Shown: positions 5,618 through 32,483 of the stretch, piece by piece
How positions within the stretch are numbered: position 1 is the first letter of the stretch
How the letters are laid out: each line of letters begins with the position of its first letter
Source of the DNA: Minisyncoccia bacterium
Lineage (GTDB): Bacteria; Patescibacteriota; Minisyncoccia; Phycocordibacterales; Phycocordibacteraceae
Reading direction: 5' to 3'
Assembly (NCBI GenBank): GCA_038212075.1
Contig: JBBQUV010000001.1
Location: forward strand, 35,200 to 99,199
DNA length: 64,000 nt
Program-made: the position numbers and the translations under genes
Notes under the pieces: model-generated
What the model saw: the letters and a program-made list of their open reading frames with translations, nothing else
Database searches by the model: none
What the model was told of the DNA's origin: nothing

Positions 5618-5667
5618 GTGCTCACATAGCCCGTAGCTACAGGGTTTTTAGCCTGTTCTAAACAAAG

Positions 5668-5749
5668 TGCTGGGGAGAGGACTTGAACCTCCATCCCTTG
5701 CGGGGCCAGCTCCTAAGGCTGGTGCGTCTACCAATTTCGCCACCCCAGC
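5668..5749 (-). tRNA. tRNA-Leu (anticodon TAG)
   Basis: Cloverleaf read by eye: acceptor GCTGGGG/CCCCAGC, anticodon loop CTTAGGA, long variable arm, T-loop TTCAAGT. No encoded CCA. Confidence 0.8.
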
Positions 5750-5837
5750 ACTTTGGTCGGAACAGATCTTCCCATTGACGATACCATTCCTTAGATGTAA
5801 TTGAAAAAGCTCAGTTGTTTGCTACGATGCATGGTAC

Positions 5838-5910
5838 GCGCCTATAGCTCAGTTGGTAGAGCAGATCCCTCTTAAGGATAAGGTCCCTGGTTCGAGCCCA
5901 GGTAGGCGCA
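5838..5910 (+). tRNA. tRNA-Lys (anticodon CTT)
   Basis: Acceptor GCGCCTA/TAGGCGC, anticodon loop CTCTTAA, T-arm CCTGG-TTCGAGC-CCAGG. Confidence 0.75.
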
Positions 5911-5936
5911 CAAAGTATTTCTAGCCACCAAAACAA

Positions 5937-5963
5937 AAACAGCACGTACGTGCTGTTTTTGTT
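5937..5963 (+). terminator. rho-independent terminator after tRNA-Lys
   Basis: cagcacg/cgtgctg palindrome followed by tttttgttt. Confidence 0.6.
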
Positions 5964-6039
5964 TACTATGTGACGAGGTGGCTCGGTCACGAGTTGCGGA
6001 CGGATTGCTCCAAGTATTCGCAATCCGTCTCGCACTCTC

Positions 6040-6124
6040 GACCCGGGCTCGCCGTTGCTTCGCAACAAGGCTGTGCCTTTCGAGTCTCACACGCACGACG
6101 CGCAGGCGTCGTGCTCCTCGGCAC
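6040..6124 (+). repeat. structured element with an inverted copy of the tRNA-Leu(TAA) T-arm and acceptor 3' end, plus a hairpin insertion
   Basis: CTCGCCGT, a hairpin, GCTGTGCC, TTCGAGTCTCAC (matches the T-loop/stem of the adjacent minus-strand tRNA), hairpin gcacgacgcgcaggcgtcgtgc, then TCCTCGGCA (acceptor 3' side). Same layout as the elements at 13427-13505 and 29165-29277. Confidence 0.5.
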
Positions 6125-6147
6125 ATAACTGCGCTTCGCTTGCTCTG

Positions 6148-6236
6148 TGCCGAGGGTGAGACTCGAACTCACATGAGGTGTTTAAAGACCTCTAGGGATT
6201 TTAAGTCCCCTACGTCTACCATTCCGTCACCTCGGC
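6148..6236 (-). tRNA. tRNA-Leu (anticodon TAA)
   Basis: Acceptor GCCGAGG/CCTCGGC, anticodon stem GGGGA/TCCCT with loop CTTAAAA, long variable arm, T-loop TTCGAGT. Confidence 0.8.
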
Positions 6237-6248
6237 AAAACGCACAGG

Positions 6249-6320
6249 AGGCCTGGGGGGGAATCGAACCCCCGCATGTAGGATTTGCAGTCCCAAGTGT
6301 TACCACTTCACCACCAGGCC
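6249..6320 (-). tRNA. tRNA-Cys (anticodon GCA)
   Basis: Acceptor GGCCTGG/CCAGGCC, discriminator U, anticodon loop CTGCAAA, T-arm GGGGG-TTCGATT-CCCCC. Confidence 0.8.
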
Positions 6321-6330
6321 TTGGGTTTGA

Positions 6331-6690
6331 TTATAACTGTTTGCCTAATTCATCCAAGTGCTGGCGATTGCGCTCGCCAGCATCAAGAACAAACTGCACG
6401 CGAGGAAGTTCACGCGTGCGGGCGTGCTCACGCATATATTCACGAAATGCATCAGCGTTGCGATTCAAAAATTCAAGTGCGGTGGTGATTGCTTCATCGG
6501 GGAAAACGGTAACAAACACCGTCGCCCGTTCACCCTTGGAACCAAGTTCTGCGCGCGTGGCAGTGATAAGTGACGTGCCGTTTGATTCGCGCACAATAAA
6601 GTCTGCCGCAAGGTGCGTAAGCAGTTCTTCTACGCGGTCGTGGTGGCGTTTACTGCGTGAATCGGGTCGTGGTGGCGGGGTGAAGTCCAT
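6331..6690 (-). CDS. rbfA: ribosome-binding factor A
   Basis: 119 aa lying immediately downstream of infB, the classic infB-rbfA order; RbfA-like length and charge pattern. Confidence 0.7.
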   Translation of the reverse strand: MDFTPPPRPDSRSKRHHDRVEELLTHLAADFIVRESNGTSLITATRAELGSKGERATVFVTVFPDEAITTALEFLNRNADAFREYMREHARTRELPRVQFVLDAGERNRQHLDELGKQL

Positions 6691-6691
6691 A

Positions 6692-8173
6692 TTACGATTT
6701 TACGACATGGAAGGCGATCACTACGTCACCACCGGCGAGTTCAGCTTTGGTTTCTATTTGCATACCAAAGTCGCCCTCTACGCGGATTTCTTGCACATCA
6801 ACACGTGCCTGCTGAAGATTCACTATTTTTCCGCGACCAATCTCTTCTTCGCGACGGGTCATTTTTACCAGTGCACCAACAGCAAGAGTACCGCTTATCA
6901 GTTTTGCACCAAGCACACGCTTGGTTGATGTTTCGCTAAACACTTTTAGGATTTTGGCTTCGCCAAGCATCACCTCCTTTGCAACCTGCGGTGCGCGTTC
7001 GGCAAGAAGCTCTGCAACGCGTTTGCCGAGGTCGTAAATAATGCTAAACGATTCAATGGAGACGCCAGAACGGTCGGCAAGCTCGCGTGCGGCACTGTCA
7101 GTGGCAACAGAGAAGGCGATAACAACACCGTTTGCGGCTTGTGCATTTTTTACGTCACCTTCGCCGACTGCACCAATACCTGCGGACATGATGCGAATAA
7201 CGGCGTTTTCATGAGTAATTTTTGCAATCTCGTGCTTAATAGCTTCAAGACTTCCCGTCACGTCTGTTTTTAGGATAAGCGGAAGCACGGTCTTTCCGTC
7301 TTCAATCACCTCAGCAGTCACTCCGCGCGATGAATCTTTTTTATTTTTTGCAACAAATGCTTCGGCCTCTTTTCTATTTTTTACCGTTACAAACGGCGTA
7401 CCAGCTGGGGGAAGGGCACTGAATCCAGAAACGCGTGCGGGGGAAGACGCTCCTGCTTCTTTCACGCGGTTGCCTGCGAAGTTTTCAATAAAACGTACGG
7501 GAGCATAGGCATCTTCTGCAACAACGTAGTCTCCAGTATTGAGCGTGCCGTTTTTAACAATGAGTGTTGCGGCAAGCCCTTGGCGTGCGTCTTGTGTTGA
7601 TTCAAGAATAAAGCCAGACGCAGGAAGTTCCGGGTCGGCGGTAAATTCTGCAAGATCGGCAGTGAGAAGTACAAGGTCAAGAAGTTCGGGTACGCCAGCA
7701 CCTGATTTTGAGGAAACTGCCGCGAAGGGAATAGCGCCACCAAGACCTTCTAGATACACGCCGTTTTCAAGGAGTGAATGTTTTGCGCGTTCCGCGTCGG
7801 CACCGTTTTTGTCTATTTTAGTGAACGCGACAACGAAAGGGATATTTGCTTCGGTGATTGCAGAAAGTGCTTCGAGCGTTTGCGGCTTCACCCCTTCATC
7901 TGCGGCAACCACAAGGATGGCGACATCCGCCGCTTGTGCGCCGCGCGCGCGAAGCGCGCGAAAAGCTTCGTGTCCCGGTGTATCAAGAAAAGTGATGTTG
8001 CGAAGTTTGCCCTCGTGTTCGTGCTGAGCTTCGTATGCAGAAACGTGTTGAGTGATGCCACCCGCTTCGCCTGCAGTTACGTTTGCTTTACGGATGTAGT
8101 CCAGCAAGGAAGACTTGCCGTGGTCGATGTGACCCATTACCGCCACTATGGGCGGGCGAGGTGTAGACGCCAT
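6692..8173 (-). CDS. infB: translation initiation factor IF-2 (short form without the N-terminal extension)
   Basis: GTP-binding motifs AVMGHIDHGKSS and DTPGH; the C-terminal IF-2 domains are present. Confidence 0.9.
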   Translation of the reverse strand: MASTPRPPIVAVMGHIDHGKSSLLDYIRKANVTAGEAGGITQHVSAYEAQHEHEGKLRNITFLDTPGHEAFRALRARGAQAADVAILVVAADEGVKPQTLEALSAITEANIPFVVAFTKIDKNGADAERAKHSLLENGVYLEGLGGAIPFAAVSSKSGAGVPELLDLVLLTADLAEFTADPELPASGFILESTQDARQGLAATLIVKNGTLNTGDYVVAEDAYAPVRFIENFAGNRVKEAGASSPARVSGFSALPPAGTPFVTVKNRKEAEAFVAKNKKDSSRGVTAEVIEDGKTVLPLILKTDVTGSLEAIKHEIAKITHENAVIRIMSAGIGAVGEGDVKNAQAANGVVIAFSVATDSAARELADRSGVSIESFSIIYDLGKRVAELLAERAPQVAKEVMLGEAKILKVFSETSTKRVLGAKLISGTLAVGALVKMTRREEEIGRGKIVNLQQARVDVQEIRVEGDFGMQIETKAELAGGDVVIAFHVVKS

Positions 8174-13122: not shown

Positions 13123-13278
13123 ATGTCTCAGGATCAACTCATAAAACTCAAGTCCACGAAATCGGACTACATCTACTTTAGCCGTAAGAATCGCAAGAAA
13201 GTAGAGCGCAAGATTGAAGTCAAAAAGTATGACCCAACGCTCCGCAAACGAGTCACCTTTAAGGAAGTGAAGAAGTAG
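13123..13278 (+). CDS. rpmG: 50S ribosomal protein L33 (Cys-less form)
   Basis: A 51-aa ORF absent from the ORF track: MSQDQLIKLKSTKSDYIYFSRKNRKKVERKIEVKKYDPTLRKRVTFKEVKK, which matches the L33 pattern. It is followed by a terminator and tRNA-Trp, a conserved neighbourhood. Confidence 0.7.
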   Translation: MSQDQLIKLKSTKSDYIYFSRKNRKKVERKIEVKKYDPTLRKRVTFKEVKK

Positions 13279-13322: not shown

Positions 13323-13396
13323 GGGTCCATCGTATAATGGTAGTACAGCGGCCTCCAAATCCGCTAGCGTAGGTTCGATTCCTACTGGGCCCGCCA
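13323..13396 (+). tRNA. tRNA-Trp (anticodon CCA), with encoded 3' CCA
   Basis: Acceptor GGGTCCA/TGGGCCC, anticodon loop CTCCAAA, T-arm GTAGG-TTCGATT-CCTAC. The anticodon stem has a C-T mismatch at its base. Confidence 0.7.
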
Positions 13397-13402
13397 ATGA
13401 GA

Positions 13403-13427
13403 AACGCCGGAAGGCGTTTTCTCTTTT
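13403..13427 (+). terminator. rho-independent terminator after tRNA-Trp
   Basis: aacgcc-ggaa-ggcgtt followed by ttctctttt. Confidence 0.6.
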
Positions 13428-13505
13428 GGTGGGCCCAAGCAGGCGTGGGGCGCCTGCGTGTAGGAATCGAATGCCGGAGCGCGACGGCGCGAGGCGGGGT
13501 CGCGG
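13427..13505 (+). repeat. structured element with an inverted copy of the tRNA-Trp acceptor 3' end and T-arm, plus a hairpin
   Basis: TGGTGGGCCCA (reverse complement of the tRNA 3' end), hairpin caggcg-tgggg-cgcctg, GTAGGAATCGAA (reverse complement of the T-loop/stem), then GCCGGAGC and ACGGCGAGGCGGGG, motifs shared with the elements at 6040 and 29165. Confidence 0.5.
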
Positions 13506-13647
13506 AATTTTCTAGCAAGAAAATATCCGTGACCGCAAAGCGGAACCGTAGAATCTACAGGATTTGATAAGCGTACTCGCGGTCCTGCTGGGCTCGCCCT
13601 TGTGGGCAACCTACATCTCTTCAGATTTTGTGAGCTACAATATACAT

Positions 13648-28898: not shown

Positions 28899-28949
28899 AC
28901 CCTCACGGTCACCGCATTTTTTTGGTATGGTAGTGGAAGTGCGCTATTT

Positions 28950-29090
28950 GGGGGATCGTCTAACGGTAAGCAGAGCTTTCTGCCTGCGCTCGCTCGGAAC
29001 GGATAAGCAAAGCCTCATCCTTTCCTCGCTCGCTTGGCGGTAGGACAGCGGCCTTTGAAGCCAGTGATACGATAGAAATGTTCGATAATT
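28950..29090 (+). pseudogene. pseudo-tRNA: partial duplicate of tRNA-Gln (5' half and anticodon arm) split by a ~64-nt insertion, lacking T-arm and acceptor 3' strand
   Basis: GGGGGATCGTCTAACGGTA and GGACAGCGGCCTTTGAAGCC are identical to the downstream tRNA-Gln but are separated by an insert. The 3' portion diverges (AGTGATACGATAGAAATGTTCGATAATTT). Confidence 0.6.
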
Positions 29091-29092
29091 TT

Positions 29093-29161
29093 GGGGGATC
29101 GTCTAACGGTAGGACAGCGGCCTTTGAAGCCGTTAATTTTGGTTCGATTCCAAGTCCCCCA
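29093..29161 (+). tRNA. tRNA-Gln (anticodon TTG)
   Basis: Acceptor GGGGGAT/GTCCCCC, anticodon stem GCGGC/GCCGT with loop CTTTGAA, T-arm TTGG-TTCGATT-CCAA, discriminator A. Confidence 0.75.
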
Positions 29162-29164
29162 GCA

Positions 29165-29277
29165 AAAATGTGCGGAGCAGATTTTAGTGCGGGGAAGCGA
29201 GACGTCTGCACGTCTCGTGTCTTGGAATCGAACGCCGGAGCATGTTCCATTCAGCAGAATGGAACGGCGAGGCGGTG
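29165..29277 (+). repeat. structured element with an inverted copy of the tRNA-Gln T-arm, plus hairpins
   Basis: Hairpin cgagacgtctgcacgtctcg, CTTGGAATCGAA (reverse complement of the tRNA-Gln T-loop/stem), CGCCGGAGC, hairpin ttccattcagcagaatggaa, and ACGGCGAGGCGGTG. Shares motifs with the elements at 6040 and 13427. Confidence 0.5.
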
Positions 29278-29391
29278 CTCGACCAAAGTTTCTTATGAGC
29301 GAAGCGAATTAGAAACTTGAAGTGCTCTTGTGGTATAGACCATTACCGAGCGACGGCGAGGTAGTGAGTTGAAGGAGATAAGTGTAATCAC

Positions 29392-29409
29392 GGTCCAAGT
29401 TCCCCAGCA
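29392..29409 (+). repeat. direct repeat of the tRNA-Gln 3' terminus (att-like)
   Basis: GGTCCAAGTTCCCCAGCA compared with the tRNA 3' end ATTCCAAGTCCCCCAGCA (16/18 identical), about 230 bp downstream of the tRNA. Confidence 0.5.
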
Positions 29410-29508
29410 AATTAGGACTAAGCACGTATGAGGGTTCCATTTGCGTTGCAGCGAAGTCCTTTTTGTTCAGGTCGTTGTAATTAACGCTTTGTCAAGTTAT
29501 AGTAAGTC

Positions 29509-29693: not shown

Positions 29694-30620
29694 ATGAAAA
29701 ACTACTATCGCATAATGCTTGGACGAAAAAGTAGCCACGCTGATGAGGCACATAAGGGCAATTTCGTTGCGGCGGGCTTCATTAAAGACAAGGACCTCAC
29801 GCGTCACCTACCTGACAATTGGCGTGATTTTAATAAAGAATTCATCCCATTATTTCTTGATCAGAATCCTGAAAAGACAAAGATATCAGCGGGTCTCGCG
29901 TGCGGAATGCTCTGGACTGTCGCTAAGGGGGTTTTGGTGGGAGACATAGTGCTCTGCCCGGATGGTAAGGGTAGTTACTACGCAGGCGAGGTTACTGGCG
30001 AGTATGAATATCATAAGGGCGAAACGTTGCCGCATCGTCGGTCGGTTCGTTGGTTCACTCGTGCCATCTCACGTGACGAAATGAGCGAACCACTCAAGAA
30101 TTCAGCAGGTTCGATTGGTACGGTCAGCAATATAACGAAATATGCGGAGGAAATTGAGGCGCTAATTTCCGGCAGTCTTCCTGCCTCAATCATTTCGACT
30201 GATGCGACCATTGAAGACCCAAGCGAATTCGCGCTTGAAAAACATTTGGAGGACTTTCTTGTTCAAAACTGGCATGGCACAGAGTTAGGTAAGCGATTCG
30301 ATATTTATGAAGAGGATGGTGAAAAGGTTGGGCAACAATACCCAAGCGATACCGGTCCCATTGATATTCTCGCTATCAGTAAAGACAAAAAAGAGATAGC
30401 TGTCATCGAGCTCAAAAAAGGTCGTGCAAGTGATGTGGTCGTGGGACAAGTTCAACGATACATGGGGTATGTGAAAGAAGAATTAGCTGAAGACAATCAG
30501 TCCGTGCGAGGCATCATCATTGCGTTCGAGAATGATGTCAAAATAAATCGTGCCCTCTCTGTTGCTCCGAACATTGAGTTCTACACCTACAAAATCCACT
30601 TTAAGCTAGAGAAAAAATAA
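29694..30620 (+). CDS. two-domain protein: N-terminal unknown domain plus a C-terminal PD-(D/E)xK nuclease-fold domain (restriction-endonuclease-like)
   Basis: C-terminal GPIDILAISKDKKEIAVIELKKG.....GQVQRYMGYV, a D...E-L-K nuclease signature with a downstream Q..Y segment. It starts 2 nt after the xis-like gene. Confidence 0.55.
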   Translation: MKNYYRIMLGRKSSHADEAHKGNFVAAGFIKDKDLTRHLPDNWRDFNKEFIPLFLDQNPEKTKISAGLACGMLWTVAKGVLVGDIVLCPDGKGSYYAGEVTGEYEYHKGETLPHRRSVRWFTRAISRDEMSEPLKNSAGSIGTVSNITKYAEEIEALISGSLPASIISTDATIEDPSEFALEKHLEDFLVQNWHGTELGKRFDIYEEDGEKVGQQYPSDTGPIDILAISKDKKEIAVIELKKGRASDVVVGQVQRYMGYVKEELAEDNQSVRGIIIAFENDVKINRALSVAPNIEFYTYKIHFKLEKK

Positions 30621-30758
30621 TTTCATGAGCAAAAGAGAAACAAATTCAAGTATGTCCAAAGAGCAGGAGCGAGCAGAGGATTGATGTGGTTGAATTAAAC
30701 AAGTTTGCAAAGCTATATAAAAAAGAATTAAAACATTTTATAAATTAACTTTAATATT

Positions 30759-31376
30759 ATGGATTCAAAAGAAACAAAAAATATATGGATAGTGGTCGTT
30801 GTTATTGCATTGATAGCGGGTGCATATTATTTTGGCACAGCATCAAAAAATCAAACTGGAGTTACAGATAATACACAAGATACTAATACGCTTACACCCA
30901 CCCAAGAAACTGCCACGCAACAAAATCAGGTTGCTCCAGTTGTTACCATTAAACCAAAAGTTACTGTCCCACAGAATACATACACTAACTTCGAGTTGTC
31001 AGAAAATCCAAAATATTTATTTAGCAAAGATTTTAACCCAAATAAAGCAAAGGTCTTTGGAGTTGGTATAGGTGACTTAAGAAGTAATATTACTTCTATA
31101 GTACCTCAACAAGAATACGGAAGCTGGGTAAGAACAACAAATTCAACTGCATATCGTATAGTAAATGGCATAGTGGTGGAAATAGCGCTTAATAATGATG
31201 GCATAGCTAATCTTTTTAGGACAGATGAAATTATTATAAAATTCGGTCAATCAGACCAAACTAAAACAACCGGTAACCCTCCATACACTACGACCACCTA
31301 TTACTACGTAAACAGAGGCTTGGTTGTTTATGATTATGGATCATCGGGTATAAAAGTAAATATTATTGGCAACTAA
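30759..31376 (+). CDS. hypothetical membrane-anchored/secreted protein (AT-rich gene)
   Basis: 205 aa, N-terminal TM helix, Thr/Gln-rich linker. Noticeably lower GC than the flanking DNA. Confidence 0.45.
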   Translation: MDSKETKNIWIVVVVIALIAGAYYFGTASKNQTGVTDNTQDTNTLTPTQETATQQNQVAPVVTIKPKVTVPQNTYTNFELSENPKYLFSKDFNPNKAKVFGVGIGDLRSNITSIVPQQEYGSWVRTTNSTAYRIVNGIVVEIALNNDGIANLFRTDEIIIKFGQSDQTKTTGNPPYTTTTYYYVNRGLVVYDYGSSGIKVNIIGN

Positions 31377-31381
31377 AATGT

Positions 31382-32287
31382 TTGAACAGAGCTGAGTTTT
31401 TTATGTCTATACCAGAAAACTTTTTTAAAGATTCGAACGGAATAATCAAGTGGCACCAAGAACACCACCCGAAATCTTACGAAAGCTATTTTCTGATAAA
31501 AGAGAAAGTTAAAAATTCCAAATTTTCTGGCTCGGCTGGACTTCTGCGAAATTTAGAAGGAAATAAAACTGTCACAGGATTTCTGTCTTTTTTGACTGAA
31601 ATAAATCTTGCCAATTTGTTTTTGGATAAGAAGGTTAAAGATTTGTCTTATGAACCGAAACATATGTCTGGTGTTGATTTCTCTTTTAATGACATCGCGA
31701 TATCTGTTAAGAATCTCCACCCAAAAAATTACGAAAAGAGCGAACAACAAGTAATAGATGCATTTCGTACGGCAGGAGGCGGTAAAACGAGTTTGACTCA
31801 TAAAAACTTCTCCAGTATTGCTATTGAAGTTAAAAAAACTGAAATGGGTACTTATGGCTGGGAGAGGTTAGAAACTGGACACAGCGGATTTCTCGATAGT
31901 GATTTATACGAAATGTCTGCTCCATTAAATTACATTGGAAAATTTGAACAGTCAGATATAAAAAATAACAAAAGGGTCTTATTTTTCTTTATTCAATCAA
32001 GTGATTTTGCACAGTATTATATTCAAGATATCGTAATTTGGTATTTTGGATATCCTGTTGAAAAGTATCAACCAATTTTTCAGAACGATATGAATTGGTA
32101 TAACAAGCTTCTAAAAACACCTCCTAAGAAAAATAATATTGATGCAATCGTATTTATGTATGCACCCAATACCTTATTGAGCTGGCCACTTGGCTGTTTG
32201 GGTGATGTATCAGATAAGGCGGCACGATTACAGATTTATGCGAAGGAAAAATCTTTTTCCGAACAGATAAAATTAATTTTATCTTAA
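31382..32287 (+). CDS. hypothetical protein (AT-rich gene)
   Basis: 301 aa, Lys/Asn-rich, no recognised motif; lies 6 nt after the previous gene, so likely an operon. Confidence 0.45.
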   Translation: MNRAEFFMSIPENFFKDSNGIIKWHQEHHPKSYESYFLIKEKVKNSKFSGSAGLLRNLEGNKTVTGFLSFLTEINLANLFLDKKVKDLSYEPKHMSGVDFSFNDIAISVKNLHPKNYEKSEQQVIDAFRTAGGGKTSLTHKNFSSIAIEVKKTEMGTYGWERLETGHSGFLDSDLYEMSAPLNYIGKFEQSDIKNNKRVLFFFIQSSDFAQYYIQDIVIWYFGYPVEKYQPIFQNDMNWYNKLLKTPPKKNNIDAIVFMYAPNTLLSWPLGCLGDVSDKAARLQIYAKEKSFSEQIKLILS

Positions 32288-32483
32288 GGGAGCAATCCTC
32301 GCTGTTTTATAATATTTCCTAAAAACGGCGGGGATTTGTGCGCGAACGGGAGGGTGGCTCAAGCGCATTTGCATTTGAGCCTCGGACATTTTCGCTAGGG
32401 CGTCCTGACTCACGGATGAGCGCCGCCGTTATCTTGCAATACAGAAATTCGAAGCGGAAGCGACACCACATACAGTCGATATG

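Follow-up and report, generated by a model that had tools for sequence, protein, structure and literature searches.

What occupies the hairpin-rich, non-coding DNA between two convergent tRNA genes of a Minisyncoccia bacterium, and how might it have arrived there? The locus lies in a stretch of 64,000 nucleotides (assembly GCA_038212075.1, contig JBBQUV010000001.1, positions 35,200 to 99,199), here called the window and numbered from its first letter. In it tRNA-Leu(UAA) (6147-6236, minus strand; found by ARAGORN, and by the Rfam tRNA model with 58.3 bits) converges on tRNA-Lys (5838-5911, plus strand), and a 178-bp segment without an open reading frame (ORF) of its own, the Leu unit (5969-6146), stands between the two. 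The initial annotation took this segment for a tRNA mimic, the third of three such instances in the window, that might be a stable RNA. By sequence criteria the Leu unit is instead a divergent member of a family of tRNA-flanking elements, which we read, with confidence slightly better than even, as non-autonomous insertion elements specific for the 3' ends of tRNA genes.

The Leu unit begins, on the tRNA-sense (minus) strand, with a 21-nt spacer (6126-6146, AGAGCAAGCGAAGCGCAGTTA) that contains no terminator and resembles the spacers (..AGCGCA..) found after tRNA-Leu(UAA) in element-bearing relatives. It leads from the end of the gene to an inverted copy of the tRNA 3' part, hereafter the inverted repeat (IR), which is divided into two pieces. 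The first, CCTCGGCACA (6116-6125, minus strand), is the exact reverse complement of 6146-6155, i.e. of the acceptor 3' strand plus ACA (tRNA positions 66-76, 10/10), and the second, TTCGAGTCTCAC (6079-6090, minus strand), is that of 6156-6167, i.e. of the T-loop and T-stem 3' strand (positions 54-65, 12/12). Between the pieces, and hence between tRNA positions 65 and 66, the inverted-repeat list places a 9-bp GC hairpin (6093-6101/6106-6114, loop GCAG on the plus strand) flanked by AC and T; a hairpin in the frame AC-GCA...TGC-T is present in most members of the family. None of 20,000 shuffles of the 300 nt downstream of tRNA-Leu(UAA) contained both perfect arms (the best had two mismatches in total), and their joint expectation from base composition is about 9e-9; as neither shuffling nor composition reproduces the two arms, the inverted copy that had been observed here is confirmed.

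Beyond the IR follows a core (6042-6078, minus strand), identified by regular expression, by alignment to a covariance model and by covariation in the family, which on the plus strand reads CCCGGGCTCGCC-GTTGC TTC GCAAC-AAGGCTGTGCC, i.e. CTCGCC, a short hairpin and then GGCTGTGCC, and which diverges from the family consensus CACCGCCTCGCC-hairpin-ATGCTCCGGCG. Next to it lies a long variable hairpin (5985-6043, from the inverted-repeat list and folding) with an 11-nt loop and a perfect 10-bp stem, GACGGATTGC/GCAATCCGTC, at 5999-6008/6020-6029; in the orthologous elements of two related loci (L010 and L021) this stem shows paired substitutions (GGATTGC/GCAATCC, ATATTGC/GCAATCT, ATAATCC/GGATTCT). 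A small hairpin, CTCG-GTCA-CGAG (5982-5993; CGGTCACGA, GCGATTACGC or GTGATTACAC in relatives), adjoins the far arm (5969-5985, minus strand), a direct repeat (DR) with the tRNA-sense sequence CGAGCCACCTCGTCACA that is a decayed copy of tRNA positions 56-76 or thereabouts (CGAGTCTCACCCTCGGCACA), agreeing with the tRNA end at about 14 of 20 positions, with gaps, when read by eye. The far arm pairs with both parts of the IR, and the plus strand folds with z = -6.45. Outside the unit a bidirectional terminator (5931-5964, inverted-repeat list), a perfect 17+17 palindrome with an A-run and a T-run, is common to tRNA-Lys on the plus strand and, on the other, to the Leu unit, tRNA-Leu and tRNA-Cys (6247-6320, minus strand), which lies just upstream of tRNA-Leu(UAA).

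Much of what had been described at this locus was thus borne out: the arms, the 9-bp hairpin, the 10-bp stem and GACGAGGTG were all found where they had been placed, and the description of a recurring, structured, non-coding element with inverted copies of the T-loop, T-stem 3' strand and acceptor 3' strand agrees with the 12/12 and 10/10 matches. An element is indeed present, with limits other than the 5968-6124 given for it; we set its end at 6146 because the 21-nt spacer up to the tRNA is counted in, and its far arm starts at about 5969. A 316-aa ORF called across the region (5978-6928) had been dismissed as spurious, rightly, since it runs antisense through two tRNA genes and rbfA and has no Pfam match.

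The Leu unit does not stand alone. A covariance model (R1) of the core designated type A, built from an alignment (A2) of 45 metagenome copies only, finds exactly three units in the window, the same three that had been proposed: one downstream of tRNA-Gln (E = 4.5e-15), one downstream of tRNA-Trp (E = 2.4e-6) and the Leu unit (5960-6087, minus strand; E = 0.0019, a rough value, and 17.3 bits), to which the alignment spans the full length of the model. No further full-length match below E = 1 was obtained in the window. Outside it, relatives of IF-2 (63-78% identity) led to 39 related loci, all in metagenome-assembled genomes of Patescibacteria (Parcubacteria/Paceibacteria-type), with which the window shares a syntenic infB-rbfA-tRNA cluster, and RbfA homologues led to a group of closer relatives (L169, L171 and L174). 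Exact-sequence look-ups of the window's IF-2, its RbfA and the 51-aa product of 13123-13278 gave no record. In the 39 loci some Cys, Lys, Leu, Trp or Tyr tRNA genes have, 20-70 nt downstream, an inverted copy of their own T-loop region, and the set of tRNAs that bear an element varies from genome to genome. Regular expressions for the type A core and for a second form, type B, gave 20 matches in the window and these loci, all of them either no more than 80 nt from a tRNA end or part of an array at such an end, whilst R1 identified 20 places in the related loci, 19 of them beside a tRNA end and one at the edge of a locus (coordinates compared by hand).

A metagenome scan with the type A core extended the family to at least 120 contigs, with 123 cores among the matches listed. 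Of these listed cores 89 have a tRNA gene within 120 nt, in a fixed orientation, and at least 37 anticodons are represented; the others lie at contig edges, in arrays or beside a single tmRNA-like 3' end, or are true orphans. In Rfam 15 (4227 models) the elements of the window have no family match at gathering score, and at E <= 10 the Leu unit has weak, chance-level matches on its terminator only and the Gln unit none. BLAST of the Gln unit against a phage and a plasmid collection returned no match, and full-text literature searches found no description of such elements. A degenerate core pattern matched viral contigs nine times, always in GC-rich coding DNA and never with the layout of the element, and these matches were therefore treated as chance. 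This is a real, widespread family in Patescibacteria, for which neither Rfam nor the phage and plasmid collections nor the literature searched yielded a match.

Several individual loci deserve description in their own right. Type B is more compact, TACACCTTGCGG-hairpin-CTCGCAAGGT adjoining the T-loop copy, with IR and DR logic as in type A (L023:12727-12860, L027:12674-12870, L030:12083-12200, L036:9190-9311 and L045:4168-4345); it occurs at tRNA-Leu(UAA) and tRNA-Trp of other genomes, and the Leu-specific spacer is common to both types. On the metagenome contig L064 a type A unit (core 1078-1124) lies beside the 3' end of an apparent tmRNA gene (...GGGGGTTCAATCTCCCCGCCTCCA), recognised by eye. 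Three further metagenome contigs (L149, L152 and L164) carry orphan units with IR, core and terminator and no adjoining tRNA; two of them, L152 and L164, share a conserved tail, CGCTCACTTTGTTCGCTGCGG, at the place expected for the tRNA.

Across the family the unit is non-coding and some 120-250 bp long, and its parts follow a constant order on the tRNA-sense strand: tRNA, spacer, IR, conserved multi-hairpin core, small hairpin and DR. The spacer measures 0-35 nt and contains a terminator in about a third of copies (bidirectional in 28 of 32 among the matches listed), and the IR, which a hairpin usually interrupts at 65|66, covers tRNA positions 54-76 in reverse complement. In the type A core a variable hairpin is enclosed by helices CGCC..GGCG and GC..GC, and after these comes a helix CCC-A-GnC...GnC-CGn-GGG with a hairpin of its own. 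In A2, 93% of cells are paired, compared with 73.5% in shuffles (none of 500 reaching 93%) and 35-49% in slid controls; double-change cells number 195 as against 57 in shuffles, and compensatory double changes occur at 16 of the 22 pairs (e.g. CCC/GGG, GCU/AGC, GUU/AAC, CCU/AGG). The predicted fold pairs the far arm with the copies of the T-stem 3' and acceptor 3' strands, and this IR:DR pairing is 77% Watson-Crick in the metagenome units among the matches listed; the arm helix does not stop at the discriminator but extends into the flank, which a plain repeat of gene sequence would be expected to do.

These features are incompatible with the tRNA shape proposed initially. The IR forms no T-arm because the T-stem 5' strand is not adjacent to the T-loop copy; of the seven tRNAs that ARAGORN and Rfam find in the window none lies at 5968-6146, whichever strand is read, and at E <= 10 the sole match of the tRNA model within 5900-6250 is the real tRNA-Leu. 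The far GACGAGGTGGC segment, which had been likened to the 5' acceptor and D region, is in the family the complement of the DR and thus relates to the tRNA 3' end (positions 56-76 approximately); GACGAGGTG, at 5971-5980, has complementarity to the 5' end of tRNA-Leu(UAA). If a gene has GCA instead of GCCA, so do its copies, which thereby follow the gene, not the mature CCA, and from this we conclude that they were taken from DNA and not from mature tRNA. A kissing interaction (CUGC:GCAG) between the loops of the IR hairpin and a core hairpin was considered and dropped, as by eye the loops do not co-vary.

How faithfully do the arms copy their tRNA? Among the matches listed, 90 metagenome units were compared with the adjoining tRNA over 13 nt comprising the T-stem 3' strand, acceptor 3' strand and discriminator. 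The DR is identical over all 13 nt in 58 of the 90 and the IR in three, making the DR the most faithful tRNA-derived part in the family, and perfect DRs of 13-20 nt lie 120-230 nt downstream. The two parts of the IR behave differently: the T-loop part is perfect in 69 of the 90 listed copies, whereas the acceptor part has on average 2.0 mismatches in 8 (best-of-window chance value, 3.15) and is wholly absent in some (L066 and L075). The arms nevertheless track their tRNA in the orthologous copies of the window, L010 and L021. All direct copies of tRNA ends within 12 kb lie just 120-430 nt away, i.e. no long, autonomous version was found in that range.

Several loci point to turnover. The spacer between tRNA-Leu(UAA) and tRNA-Lys contains no unit in L013, where it is 45 nt long (a terminator with short flanks, the terminator being the same as at 5931-5964 and sitting 8 nt after tRNA-Leu), or in L174, where it is 25 nt long. 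In L169, with an RbfA 85% identical to that of the window, a unit of the same subtype (GGCACAG..GCGAGCCGGGGTCGAGAG..CTCGTGACC) is flipped, adjoins tRNA-Lys and has degenerate arms, and in L171 two Lys units come after a Leu unit that is truncated within its GC hairpin. Arrays comprise identical units in L047 (three) and diverged units in L012 (two, as against one in L011). Interiors and arms are modular: in 60 of 85 cases among the matches listed the nearest relative of an interior lies at a tRNA for another amino acid, with identity up to about 92%; the Gln unit of the window and a Lys unit in L027 have 77% identity over 198 nt; and in the single genome of L047 the Leu and Tyr units have a common core hairpin, a part that is variable elsewhere in the family, whilst their arms match their own tRNAs. 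The empty sites, the copies that are flipped or truncated, the tandem arrays, the orphans and the random-looking mismatches make turnover and insertion a better reading than a stable RNA gene.

The order and orientation of the Cys, Leu(UAA), Lys and Leu(UAG) genes in L012, L036, L045, L169 and L174 also differ from those at 5667-6320 of the window, with single genes or blocks inverted; one might speculate that recombination between tRNA-like inverted repeats causes such inversions.

When an island integrates into a tRNA gene, the gene is regenerated and a fragment of it ends up displaced; an intact gene with a displaced direct copy of its 3' part is the recognised mark of integration (PMC4383910). 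Class II integrases use the T-loop, and experiments with Ms6 have shown that an attP core matched to other tRNAs retargets integration (PMC1762012). The units of the present family resemble islands and prophages that integrate at this sublocation through tyrosine integrases, such as mycobacteriophage Ms6, in that they target tRNA genes in their 3' part (or a tmRNA-like 3' end), that the block of identity runs from the T-loop to the end of the gene (its left edge in the T-loop matching the class II sublocation; PMC1762012), that an intact gene is accompanied by a displaced direct copy bounding the insert at its far end (decayed in the Leu unit), that arrays form at one tRNA, and that specificity goes with identity between core and tRNA. 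Unlike such islands (PMC1762012, PMC4383910), they measure 120-250 bp, have neither an integrase nor any other gene inside, possess in addition a structured, conserved core and a second, inverted and hairpin-split version of the target, and fit a single scaffold to dozens of tRNAs.

We infer insertion from features that are observed directly, namely the anatomy, the covariation, the near-exclusive position at tRNA 3' ends (with one tmRNA-like 3' end besides), the tRNA-specific arms on exchangeable interiors, the perfect DRs, the arrays and the differences in presence, orientation and truncation. In the mechanism that we postulate, site-specific recombination would bring the unit into the 3' end of a tRNA gene, crossing over in or close to the T-loop, as class II tRNA-targeting integrases do; the gene would receive a fresh tail from the element, and its own tail, displaced or duplicated, would be left as the DR. 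The IR would be there to pair with the DR when the element is single-stranded, giving a branched duplex copy of the target site, comparable with the forked-hairpin attP of phage CTX or with a folded integron attC. A putative trans-acting enzyme would do the chemistry and might read the folded scaffold along with the universal T-loop box. Which tRNA is used would depend on homology in the variable part, consistent with the retargeting of Ms6 by editing of its attP core (PMC1762012). The tracking of the tRNA by the IR in orthologues may stem from quasi-palindrome correction or from selection. Pairing between the inverted copy and the tRNA transcript would be averted by two features, the proximal terminator and the IR:DR helix.

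Several results weigh against insertion as the explanation. No recombinase or transposase was found in or adjoining the units; clustering of ORFs of at least 100 aa from the 120 metagenome loci showed only housekeeping genes to recur, and a Pfam screen of 18 ORFs of the window identified none as a recombinase. No excised form was seen, nor any exact pair of empty and filled sites in near-identical genomes. DR mismatches and hairpin mismatches are uncorrelated, and a simple clock in which elements insert and then decay is therefore unsupported. The Leu unit is atypical, its perfect IR and decayed DR running opposite to the family trend, so that some process, conversion or selection, keeps this IR matched to the tRNA. 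Finally, the better fold of the tRNA-sense strand and its G.A-rich motifs suit RNA as well as single-stranded DNA, and strict conservation of the core across very divergent contigs would also fit a host function. On the matter of the enzyme, no Y1 (HUH-type) transposase was found here, and the five large serine recombinase genes among the 120 metagenome loci look like separate islands at the same or nearby tRNAs.

The most probable alternative, albeit an unlikely one, is a functional structured RNA tied to its tRNA, co-transcribed with it on the tRNA-sense strand or made from a convergent promoter of its own, whose complementarity or identity to the tRNA 3' half might serve in control of 3' maturation or stability, as a decoy for an enzyme or toxin that recognises the acceptor/T region, or as a sponge. 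The strong covariation and invariant core are what such an RNA would show, and the tRNA-sense strand has the more stable fold in 11 of 12 copies and in 80 of 105 among the matches listed. That strand also presents an internal loop rich in purines (GGA/GAG) and the hairpin GAGC-GACG-GCGAG with tandem G.A pairs; other members have Watson-Crick pairs in their place, and on the opposite strand they would be C.T mismatches. The fold is thus most likely used on the tRNA-sense strand, not on the strand originally read as tRNA-like. Wobble pairs do not help to assign it, as G.U equals A.C on both strands; only fold energy and G.A motifs lean towards the tRNA-sense strand. In the element helices G.U accounts for 2.3% and A.C for 2.1%, with mismatch classes in the random ratio of 1:1:4, whereas in tRNA stems of the same loci the values are 3.9% and 0.26%; the preference for G.U over A.C that marks those tRNAs is missing from the elements, and single-stranded DNA fits their mismatch pattern at least as well as RNA.

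Since no terminator precedes the Leu unit and a strong one follows its DR, a Cys-Leu-element transcript is plausible and co-transcription of the Leu unit with tRNA-Cys and tRNA-Leu is possible; the arms that follow the tRNA in the orthologues of the window, L010 and L021 would suit an RNA partner too. About a third of copies, however, have a mostly bidirectional terminator between tRNA and unit and no room for a promoter, and a sigma-70 promoter scan found no promoter-like site for any of the three units of the window. The T-stem is not formed and the discriminator/CCA region is buried in the arm helix, which would therefore make a poor tRNA-like substrate, and presence is erratic between close relatives and between tRNAs, with truncated, flipped and orphan copies common.

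A further possibility, which we judge improbable, is that insertion is programmable, i.e. that a nucleic-acid-guided system without a protein gene of its own consists of a scaffold of about 100 nt with exchangeable arms that base-pair with the 20-nt tRNA tail. The arms would then be rewritten from each new target, and it would be the folded scaffold, not the sequence of the target, that a putative enzyme of Patescibacteria recognises. Somewhat less probable still is the related proposal of a guide-encoding mobile element, modelled on the bridge RNAs of IS110 or the base-pairing guides at IS200/IS605 ends, in which two tRNA-complementary segments around a hairpin, as RNA or as the element's own single strand, direct a recombinase or nuclease, acting in trans, to the tRNA gene. 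The guide-hairpin-guide layout with a complementary target 10-35 nt upstream resembles the left end of IS608, the arms swap freely on a conserved scaffold across at least 37 anticodons, and the T-loop part of the IR is perfect in 69 of 90 copies among the matches listed. The acceptor part of the IR, in contrast, matches poorly or is missing, as described above, no associated protein gene was found, and nothing indicates how a guide would be rewritten upon a change of target. For IS110 itself the candidate relationship to bridge RNA or seekRNA was rejected: such guide RNAs are encoded at the end of an element with a DEDD recombinase gene, and no ORF lies in or adjoining the units.

Very improbable, finally, is a passive relic, be it a tRNA duplicate or pseudogene in decay or an att scar left by a larger island, in which terminator-type hairpins would sit and which local template switching would keep palindromic: displaced tRNA 3' fragments of larger islands do occur (L142, and the direct T-arm copy in L021), mismatches look random and quasi-palindrome correction could account for the tracking of the tRNA by the IR, but a 100-nt core with compensatory changes across at least 120 unrelated contigs and at least 37 tRNA species, matched by a covariance model from other environments, largely refutes it.

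Insertion at tRNA gene ends, our preferred reading, also invites comparison with other systems. Elements that exploit Xer, such as phage CTX through its attP, have in the integrated state a second, inverted, target-like copy near one junction that is able to pair into a branched duplex, and integron attC sites are conserved in structure more than in sequence, with units stacking in arrays at one primary site. The inverted arms of the present units can likewise fold into an imperfect duplex, in the predicted IR:DR pairing; they differ in targeting a tRNA gene rather than dif or attI, in an interior conserved in sequence where part of attC is variable, and in a single-stranded intermediate that is only postulated. 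With REPINs, which have RAYT transposases, and with small non-autonomous IS200/IS605 derivatives, hairpin-rich elements all mobilised in trans, they share a short, non-coding, hairpin-dominated, multi-copy form, a segment at the hairpin foot complementary to the flanking target, and an enzyme that would be encoded elsewhere; those elements, unlike ours, copy no 20 nt of a neighbouring gene and are not tRNA-specific. The tRNA-like domain of tmRNA, the bacterial Y RNA YrlA, plant mitochondrial t-elements and viral tRNA-like structures also build acceptor- and T-stem-like helices from tRNA-resembling sequence, whereas the units have no closed T-arm or free NCCA end, copy the adjacent gene and have no Rfam match. 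Classification among miniature inverted-repeat transposable elements was rejected: the inverted arms are copies of the adjacent tRNA and not a family-wide terminal repeat, and the sites are tRNA ends and not dispersed. By eye, no short target-site duplication was seen outside the arms.

tRNA genes are classic landing sites of mobile DNA, and the occupants known to us so far are kilobase-sized islands with their own integrases. The family described here is a gene-less unit of 0.1-0.25 kb in which one covarying scaffold carries 20-nt arms swapped to fit at least 37 anticodon types and a tmRNA-like end. If mobile, it would be a compact site-specific insertion module and would point to an enzyme in the least-studied bacterial radiation; if it acts as RNA instead, it would be a per-tRNA companion RNA without counterpart in the libraries and literature searched. 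In either case the units give rise to spurious ORF calls, here one of 316 aa, which is a concern for annotation.

The two other units of the window follow the same plan on the plus strand. Downstream of tRNA-Trp (13323-13396), the Trp unit (13397-13598) comprises a terminator (13401-13420), IR parts at 13427-13439 and 13460-13471 with the splitting hairpin at 13439-13457, a core from 13472 and a DR at 13582-13597. The Gln unit (29164-29411), downstream of tRNA-Gln (29092-29163), has IR parts at 29188-29197 and 29221-29232, the splitting hairpin at 29198-29217, a core from 29233 and a DR with one mismatch at 29395-29407.

Further features lie elsewhere in the window or in the other loci. Directly upstream of tRNA-Gln a partial same-strand copy of its 5' half (28949-29070) consists of positions 1-19, an insert of about 70 nt that has no match elsewhere in the loci compared, and then positions 16-41 or so, including the anticodon. 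Downstream of the Gln unit, a block at 29694-32300 with GC content down to 0.37 (30-32 kb) encodes a NucS/PDDEXK-like nuclease and two ORFs without a Pfam match, and may be an island at tRNA-Gln. Large serine recombinase genes adjoin tRNA-Glu or tRNA-Gly in L142:67-3636, L127:11361-12973 and L085:268-1868; the island in L142 has displaced an 11-nt tRNA-Glu end together with an older small unit by 3.3 kb. In L021:9622-9740 a direct copy of the whole T-arm and acceptor 3' end lies about 70 nt downstream of tRNA-Leu(UAG), and is a conventional displaced-fragment scar distinct from the element family. At tRNA-Leu(UAG) of the window itself, leader and trailer (5653-5675 / 5743-5765) are complementary over 23 nt (87%), a pairing of the flanks unlike that of the element, which lengthens the acceptor stem into a long precursor helix.

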